Below are positions 15,946-16,179 of a DNA stretch of 64,000 bases, in pieces. Numbering within the stretch: position 1 is the stretch's first letter; each line of letters opens with the position of its first letter. Under the pieces are notes generated by a model, which saw only the letters and a program-made list of their open reading frames with translations, had not been told where the DNA came from and did not search any database. Position numbers and translations under genes: made by a program. The DNA is from Anaerolineae bacterium (lineage in GTDB: Bacteria > Chloroflexota > Anaerolineae > J036 > Brachytrichaceae), in the NCBI GenBank assembly GCA_947476335.1, contig CANJQH010000002.1, positions 22,768-86,767 of the forward strand, written 5' to 3'.

Positions 15946-15985
15946 TTATTTTTACTCTTTGCTCTTTATTCTTTGCTCTTTAACT

Positions 15986-16166
15986 GGGTGCATTCGCCAA
16001 AAGGGGCGATTTGGTCATCCGCCATCGCGTGCGGCCCATCGTCGGGAAATCCCTCGAAACGCGCTATCTCCCTCCCCCGAAGGGGGAGGGAGATAGCGCG
16101 TTTCGAGATTCCAATCAGTGCTGATCGCCGGCGGTCGAAAGTTTGCCCCTTTTGGCGAATGCACCC
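15986..16166. mobile_element. 181-bp chimeric MITE (MITE-A-like core hairpin, unrelated 22-bp TIRs)
   Basis: Perfect 22-bp TIRs GGGTGCATTCGCCAAAAGGGGC. Core CGAAACGCGCTATCTCCCTCCCCCGAAGGGGGAGGGAGATAGCGCGTTTCG. 8-bp direct repeats CTTTAACT at 15978-15985 and 16167-16174. Confidence 0.85.
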
Positions 16167-16179
16167 CTTTAACTCCTCG

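Follow-up and report, generated by a model that had tools for sequence, protein, structure and literature searches.

The window (the whole 64-kb stretch of DNA analyzed here) contains a 181-bp element that is probably a hybrid MITE: it belongs to a new Chloroflexota family, designated T, and carries as a passenger a palindrome derived from a second family, MITE-A. It is a non-coding MITE of uncultured Chloroflexota and shows every testable property of MITEs save a cognate insertion sequence. It has terminal inverted repeats (TIRs), produces a duplication of constant length, occurs at multiple loci, has an empty site, and is small and non-coding. No transposase gene lies inside it, and a homologue search with the open frame that crosses it found none. 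Its sequence is identical across several independent metagenome assemblies and is therefore no assembly artefact. An initial annotation had described the element as a chimera, with a MITE-A-type core in an unrelated TIR shell that has its own 8-bp duplication, and our analysis confirms this description. The element and its surroundings are organized as follows.

14781-15806 (+): gene for a TerC-family membrane protein (ORF; Pfam PF03741 on the identical gene in L001/L007)
15826-15833 and 15946-15953: MITE-A target duplication TTATTTTT, flanking the MITE-A copy at 15834
15834-15945 (+): neighboring MITE-A copy, TIR GTAACTACTCAGGC, core hairpin at 15864-15916
15978-15985: left target duplication CTTTAACT (sequence read; 8/8 identity with the right copy, by script)
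15986-16007 (+): left TIR of the T family, GGGTGCATTCGCCAAAAGGGGC (exact 22-mer match, 0 expected by chance)
16008-16052: left interior, present in the hairpin-bearing T subfamily only (kept in the second copy)
16053-16107: palindromic core with 26-nt arms and loop GAA (UUCG on the minus strand), homologous to the cores of MITE-A and MITE-C (inverted repeat, 100% complementary)
16108-16144: right interior (kept in the second copy)
16145-16166 (-): right TIR, exact reverse complement of the left TIR
16167-16174: right target duplication CTTTAACT (sequence read)
16180-16647 (-): gene for a 155-aa secreted or lipoprotein-like protein (ORF)
11372-11396, 13908-13943, 15793-15812, 15951-15982, 25663-25684, 45400-45421, 47484-47503 and 51470-51494: tandem repeats beside MITE-A copies

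Reading of the sequence bore out the perfect 22-bp TIRs proposed at 15986-16166 (22/22 bases) and the 8-bp direct repeat, which abuts both ends of the element. The TIR has only two matches in the 64 kb, even when three mismatches are allowed (0 expected, 100 shuffles). The arms of the core inverted repeat lie at 16053-16078 and 16082-16107, a 26+3+26 geometry spanning 55 nt, and the 51-nt block pattern given in the initial annotation has its single match in the 64 kb at this element. The TIR-proximal part of the right interior, GTCGAAAGTTT (reverse complement AAACTTTCGAC), carries a subterminal TTTCGAC motif. With the ends oriented and compared by eye, this motif is common to the 181-bp element and the T elements of the MAG MiH-16apr19-249.

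The 181-bp element is mobile as a unit, because a second hairpin-bearing copy is present at another locus of this organism, flanked by an 8-bp duplication of its own, AAGCGTAC. This copy (L056:9777-9956) was traced via contig L004, which runs from the element into a different flank. It lies between polA and a surA-like gene, which are co-oriented, and is 36 nt ahead of the downstream start codon. The two copies are ~97% identical, with 4 substitutions and 2 small indels between them, none of which falls within the 55-nt palindrome; the second copy has one mismatch in one TIR. It is also present in L057, L059 and L061 and partly in L055 and L058, and the assemblies that contain it include the NCBI MAG GCA_026389875.1 (‘Chloroflexi bacterium’). 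The two hairpin-bearing T copies known come from ~85 kb of this genome. No candidates for further copies turned up among mis-called ORFs when a 61-aa translation of the element served as the query. Numerous independent contigs from metagenomes terminate within the T element (L002, L003, L005, L006, L055, L058, L060, L062-L064).

To place the shell, the exact 22-mer was scanned against 185,579 species genomes and was found at 29 genome loci. Nearly all of these are from one Chloroflexota MAG (MiH-16apr19-249) and three are from two Thermoflexales MAGs; one contig with the T TIR had been placed in a Roseobacter bin. Approximately 35 elements end in the 22-mer in Chloroflexota/Thermoflexales MAGs. 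The TIR is identical to the element TIRs in the MAGs CAXNFZ01, DAORUN01 and JBBQST01, where the elements that it bounds are ~180-235 bp long. In the 14 complete T elements, the flanking duplications match at 7-8 of 8 positions in nine cases and match when shifted by one base in three; two show no match. Neither the T TIR nor the hairpin pattern had a match in viral contigs (0 matches).

T is a typical MITE family, with conserved ends and replaceable cores. The hairpin is present in both T shells from the window organism and in none of the 12 complete T elements from elsewhere, and it is dispensable for T transposition because these 12 elements lack it. Most of the other T interiors consist of CTCACGCGAAGAACGCGAAG-type repeats that are unrelated to the interior of the 181-bp element. 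The latter lacks these repeats and shares only the subterminal TTTCGAC motif. Its T ends and foreign interior hence define a hybrid subfamily. The interiors of the T elements in L036 and L041 differ again. Two T elements of another Thermoflexales MAG (L014:2913-3095, L022:7681-7897) have a different core with other hairpins, among them a canonical terminator-like GCCCCTTCGGGGC followed by T7. At L015:1668-1699, there is a 32-bp ‘ends-only’ palindrome, GGGTGCATTCGCCAAAAGGGGCGAATGCACCC, made up of the left T TIR joined to the outermost 10 nt of the right TIR; it could be a minimal element or a product of excision or rearrangement.

Searches for IS-sized pairs with relaxed TIR patterns, which covered the window and ~300 kb of related loci, detected no parent insertion sequence. 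Likewise, an all-against-all blastn of the window and the ~300 kb of loci found no multicopy segments longer than 300 bp, and none of the window’s 52 ORFs has a transposase or RAYT domain. Relaxed TIR matches at window positions 23297 and 45652 were rejected as coding sequence.

The sequence comparisons indicate that the core is homologous to that of MITE-A and was acquired secondarily, given its ~89% identity to the MITE-A variant of MAG MiH-16apr19-249 (CGAAAC-GCGC-TAT-TCCTT-C5GAAG5-...), with which it has the GCGC block in common. Local alignment with the window’s MITE-A covers 56 nt (TCCC.CGAAAC...GTTTCG) with 46/56 identical positions. Wherever the left arm differs, the right arm carries the mirrored change, and this holds for a 1-nt indel as well. 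The initial annotation had reasoned that the similarity would be coincidental if copies of the T shell usually lacked the hairpin. Most of them do (12/14, all 12 from other MAGs), but the conclusion does not hold in view of the ~89% identity.

The similarity is confined to the core. The central CGAAAC...C5-GAA-G5...GTTTCG palindrome of MITE-A is present in the 181-bp element, and the MITE-A TIR GTAACTACTCAGGCC and subterminal arms are absent. Local alignments of the element with MITE-A and MITE-C flanks, evaluated against shuffles, showed no significant similarity, in keeping with the earlier claim that its TIRs are unrelated to the MITE-A termini. Homology beyond the core was rejected (best p 0.04-0.07 before multiple-test correction). 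The 181-bp element is thus not a member of MITE-A, since its ends differ.

MITE-A itself is present in eight copies of ~112-130 bp in the window (11411, 13764, 15834, 25536, 33178, 45288, 47347, 51358), including the one at 15834-15945 that had been noted 40 bp from the element. All eight are intergenic, and most lie 15-110 nt past a stop codon. Clear 8-bp duplications are TTATTTTT and GAGTAAAG in the window and CCGTATTC and TTTTTCTC in L056. In the old window copies at 11411, 13764 and 47347, hairpins and TIRs have both decayed. The start of the MITE-A TIR, GTAA, together with the 8-bp duplication, resembles the ends of the IS66 family (PMC11946415), a resemblance that serves as a lead only. 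Almost all MITE-A copies in the window adjoin short tandem repeats of 7-14 nt, which in some cases form inverted arrays on both sides, and the target CTTTAACT of the T element is the end of one such array. Repeated target-site duplication and target preference are both possible origins of these arrays. A fully symmetric ‘B/B’ MITE-A at L024:1-235, a near-perfect 235-bp fold-back on the MITE-A loop with which the locus begins, is probably a palindrome-induced assembly artefact and was excluded.

The earlier observation of one hairpin inside different shells can be extended from two shells to three. A metagenome scan with a degenerate hairpin pattern returned 13 loci, with seven hairpins in MITE-A shells, four in shells of a third type designated MITE-C, and three unrelated. 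MITE-C is 112 bp long, with the TIR GGGAGTGCGCAAAGCCC and a GC-rich hairpin stem, and was found at L040:2778-2889, L042, L043, L044 and L054. Its duplication is also 8 bp (perfect in L042, TCAGAACG; 7/8 in L044), such that the A, C and T shells all make duplications of this length. Pairwise comparison of the three shells outside the core showed no significant similarity. None of ~35 related hairpins lies outside a shell, a count that covers the window, L056 (21 kb more of the genome), ~170 kb of MAG loci and the metagenome matches. A stand-alone perfect 26+3+26 hairpin with CGAAAC/GTTTCG ends, a CCCCGAAGGGG centre and no TIR shell was seen at L045:6006-6060, on an unrelated, AT-richer metagenome contig of 455 kb. 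A literature search found no description of these Chloroflexota elements.

The genomic context provides an empty site. The TerC and 155-aa genes are convergent, and the 3′ end of the TerC gene faces a MITE cluster that occupies the whole 373-bp gap between them; the right copy of CTTTAACT stops 5 nt short of the stop codon of the 155-aa gene. In the syntenic locus of a relative (L065), the TerC gene and a 154-aa gene, whose product is 64% identical to the window’s 155-aa protein, are 6 bp apart with no MITE. L065 is the empty site for the whole cluster.

Other features of the window were observed in passing. An FMN riboswitch (96 bits) is located at 13627-13751 on the minus strand, ahead of an ABC transporter operon, and the degenerate MITE-A copy at 13764-13885 lies 12 nt upstream of the aptamer, at the expected promoter position. 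A perfect 12-nt tandem repeat, GCCGTGAACGAA, is present in 6.1 copies at 10533-10605, inside a diadenylate-cyclase-like gene. Contig L001, which is identical elsewhere, appears to have ~36 nt more at this repeat, which suggests a coding VNTR. A further repeat with a 12-nt period (~34 units, consensus CGCCGACCGCGA) occupies 61073-61705, within ORF 60684-61757, for which no Pfam match was found.

Most likely, the hybrid arose from a MITE-A that inserted into a T element and then lost its own ends. The nested stage is observed in L013, where a complete MITE-A with its own duplication, GATCTCTT, lies inside a T element. In L040, where the contig is truncated, a T end leads into a second MITE-A. 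Deletion would then have removed the termini of the inserted MITE-A along with most of the original T core, and the resulting hybrid transposed as a unit to give at least two copies. For this, a transposase encoded elsewhere would bind both TIRs, excise the 181 bp and insert them at a staggered 8-bp cut. Because no autonomous element with the T TIR was found, T elements would be mobilized in trans. No terminal remnants of MITE-A were detected inside the 181-bp element (flank p ~0.07 at best), which makes recombination or template switching at the palindrome as possible a route as nested insertion followed by deletion.

To assess the behavior of the palindrome, 16 distinct cores taken from all three shells were aligned (26 pairs, 403 cells). 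As the initial annotation had proposed, the arms change together and keep their pairing: 10 of the 26 pairs changed on both sides, and 98.8% of the cells are paired. Only 2/403 cells are G-U intermediates, and slid controls of the alignment collapse. Relative to the asymmetric shell, 9/23 MITE-A and 2/5 MITE-C copies have their 3-nt loop (GAA/TTC) inverted, as read from short-read assemblies, and both orientations are present within the window organism. The copies compared in this respect included L056:3476-3587 against the window’s MITE-A, and L013, L016, L028, L040, L046 and L049. In an 82-bp MITE-A at L056:16540-16621, the centre of the palindrome has been symmetrically deleted, leaving CGAAACACGC joined to GCGTGTTTCG. 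The core folds as DNA at -35 kcal/mol (z = -11.5). The whole-element RNA folds at -129.8 kcal/mol on one strand (z = -14) and at -122.6 kcal/mol on the other (z = -13).

As for the suggestion in the initial annotation that the hairpin itself is the selected unit, this evidence leans toward palindrome behavior at the DNA level over a function in host RNA or protein recognition. Strict Watson-Crick symmetry, loop flips, symmetric deletion and unconstrained decay together fit DNA-level dynamics plus recent proliferation better than selection by the host on an RNA, and the decay of both hairpins and TIRs in old MITE-A copies argues against purifying selection at the host level. Long perfect inverted repeats would homogenize their arms, flip their loop and lose their centre symmetrically through intrastrand pairing and template switching, and the copies seen proliferating would be the young, still-perfect ones only. 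Where the element sits shortly past a stop codon, its transcript would form a very stable stem (-130 kcal/mol over the full element) that may, as a side effect, impede 3′ exonucleases or read-through, and an incidental effect of the element on mRNA 3′ ends is plausible.

Alternatively, the palindrome may serve the elements as a structural or binding module (a cruciform, a foldback, or a binding site of a host factor or transposase factor) that makes transposition more successful and that three families have kept or acquired. We judge this rather unlikely. The same type of core does occur in A, T and C shells that are otherwise unrelated and all have 8-bp duplications, related hairpins are never seen outside a shell, and young copies have perfect hairpins while those of old copies have decayed. 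The core’s presence in three unrelated shells could mean that it is of advantage to the elements, which its role as a passenger does not explain. While the two T copies also differ outside the hairpin only, 0 differences in 55 nt versus ~6 in 126 nt is not significant (P ~0.2, an estimate). No protein partner is known, a centre-deleted MITE-A exists, albeit once only, and the 12 complete T elements without the hairpin show that the T transposase does not need it. A further proposal is that the 55-nt palindrome is an evolutionary unit in its own right, a structure-defined DNA module that moves between unrelated MITE shells (at least A, C and T), is maintained by selection for hairpin or cruciform formation in transposition or replication, and switches its loop in situ. 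This we find doubtful; if true, the module would be a kind of ‘parasite of parasites’, or a cis-acting element shared among MITEs that enhances their proliferation, and in either case a type undescribed for bacterial MITEs.

It is also unlikely that the host keeps the hairpin as an RNA element, such as a bidirectional terminator, a 3′-end stabilizer or an RNase III site, for which the MITEs would be vehicles. A classical Rho-independent terminator was rejected: there is no U-tract by the hairpin on either strand, a terminator scan reports nothing there, and terminator-like sites in the window are no commoner than in shuffles. A strong terminator would moreover be harmful in the polA-surA copy, 36 nt before the start of a co-oriented gene. 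All MITE-A and both T copies are intergenic, most of them 5-110 nt past a stop codon, and the RNA fold is extremely stable on both strands; for the Correia/NEMIS elements of Neisseria, it has been suggested that RNase III processes the RNA hairpins of these MITEs (PMC2229807). UUCG stands in the sense of the upstream gene in 5/5 unambiguous copies of the window organism and could hint at an RNA role. As a general rule, however, this orientation was rejected, as the loop is mixed in its orientation to transcription across relatives (about 8 vs 7 in one count, about 3 vs 7 in another). The loop also flips relative to the shell, G-U pairs are almost lacking though 10 pairs covary, and decayed copies persist. 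Searches of Rfam at gathering and permissive thresholds gave sub-threshold, generic miRNA-hairpin matches only, with no family match.

The suggestion in the initial annotation that the hairpin is a REP-like element captured by MITEs fared worst. An independently mobile palindrome, moved by a RAYT or IS200-type tyrosine transposase and inserted into several MITEs, would account for the presence of the hairpin in three unrelated shells in either loop orientation, and the stand-alone hairpin of contig L045 has the same 26+3+26 geometry. Against this, none of the ~35 related hairpins of this lineage stands alone, and the hairpin is always at the exact centre of its shell. REPs are palindromes of 20-40 bp, most of which are tagged at one end with GTAG or CGTC (PMC3733652); the hairpin is 55 nt long and perfect, with no such tag. 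The recommended search for a RAYT gene, run on the 64-kb window, yielded neither a RAYT nor any other transposase domain among the 52 ORFs. We therefore regard a REP-like origin as highly improbable, and a T-family hybrid with a MITE-A-derived passenger as the preferred reading.

The hybrid can be compared with several known systems. ‘Mobile insertion cassettes’ are likewise hybrid non-autonomous elements, which have the same ends with a foreign core. Long DNA palindromes are subject to quasipalindrome correction by template switching, and parvovirus termini form ‘flip/flop’ hairpin isomers. The palindrome described here is similar to both in that its arms are kept identical by symmetric changes, both loop orientations occur and the centre is deleted symmetrically; unlike parvovirus termini, it is a short chromosomal repeat inside transposons, with no replication-priming role implied. 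In the TIME-RES elements derived from Tn3 (PMC4133298), the ends recognized by the transposase are also kept, the core is foreign and the hybrid is still mobile. The module here differs in being a 55-nt non-coding palindrome from another MITE, rather than a gene or res site, and the whole element is below 200 bp.

The element resembles other bacterial MITEs (Correia/NEMIS, RUP, ERIC, Nezha; PMC2229807) in being small and non-coding, with TIRs and a target duplication, in its intergenic position beside coding sequences, and in the long stable stem-loop formed when transcribed. It differs from many of them in its 8-bp duplication, in contrast to the frequent TA (PMC2229807). Its TIR sequence is new, its host is an uncultured member of the Chloroflexota, and the perfect palindrome with 26-bp arms at its centre is common to two other MITE families. 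REPs and REPINs mobilized by RAYTs (PMC2817692, PMC3733652) are similarly extragenic palindromes at gene ends with compensated stem changes. The present palindrome is untagged, perfect over 55 nt, never free-standing and enclosed in shells with TIRs and duplications, and no RAYT was seen in the window. Like Rho-independent terminators, it is a GC-rich hairpin just past stop codons and between convergent genes; unlike them, it has no U-tract, its stem is ~3 times longer, and one copy is directly upstream of a co-oriented gene. The 181-bp element is not a REP/REPIN, a classical terminator or a member of any Rfam family. It is a real and tidy example of module swapping between tiny transposons and not a new kind of system. 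What is unusual is that one perfect palindrome is common to three MITE families with unrelated ends, in combination with flip/flop and symmetric evolution.

In summary, the locus documents three undescribed MITE families of uncultured Thermoflexales-type Chloroflexota. MITE insertions have inflated an intergenic gap from 6 bp to 373 bp, and MITEs break metagenome assemblies of this organism. The locus captures a clean exchange of a core between MITE families, of which a nested intermediate, a mobile hybrid and an empty site have each been seen. In addition, the palindrome provides a natural test of whether stem covariation arises from selection on RNA or from the mechanics of DNA palindromes. 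This distinction matters wherever covariation serves as evidence of structured RNAs.
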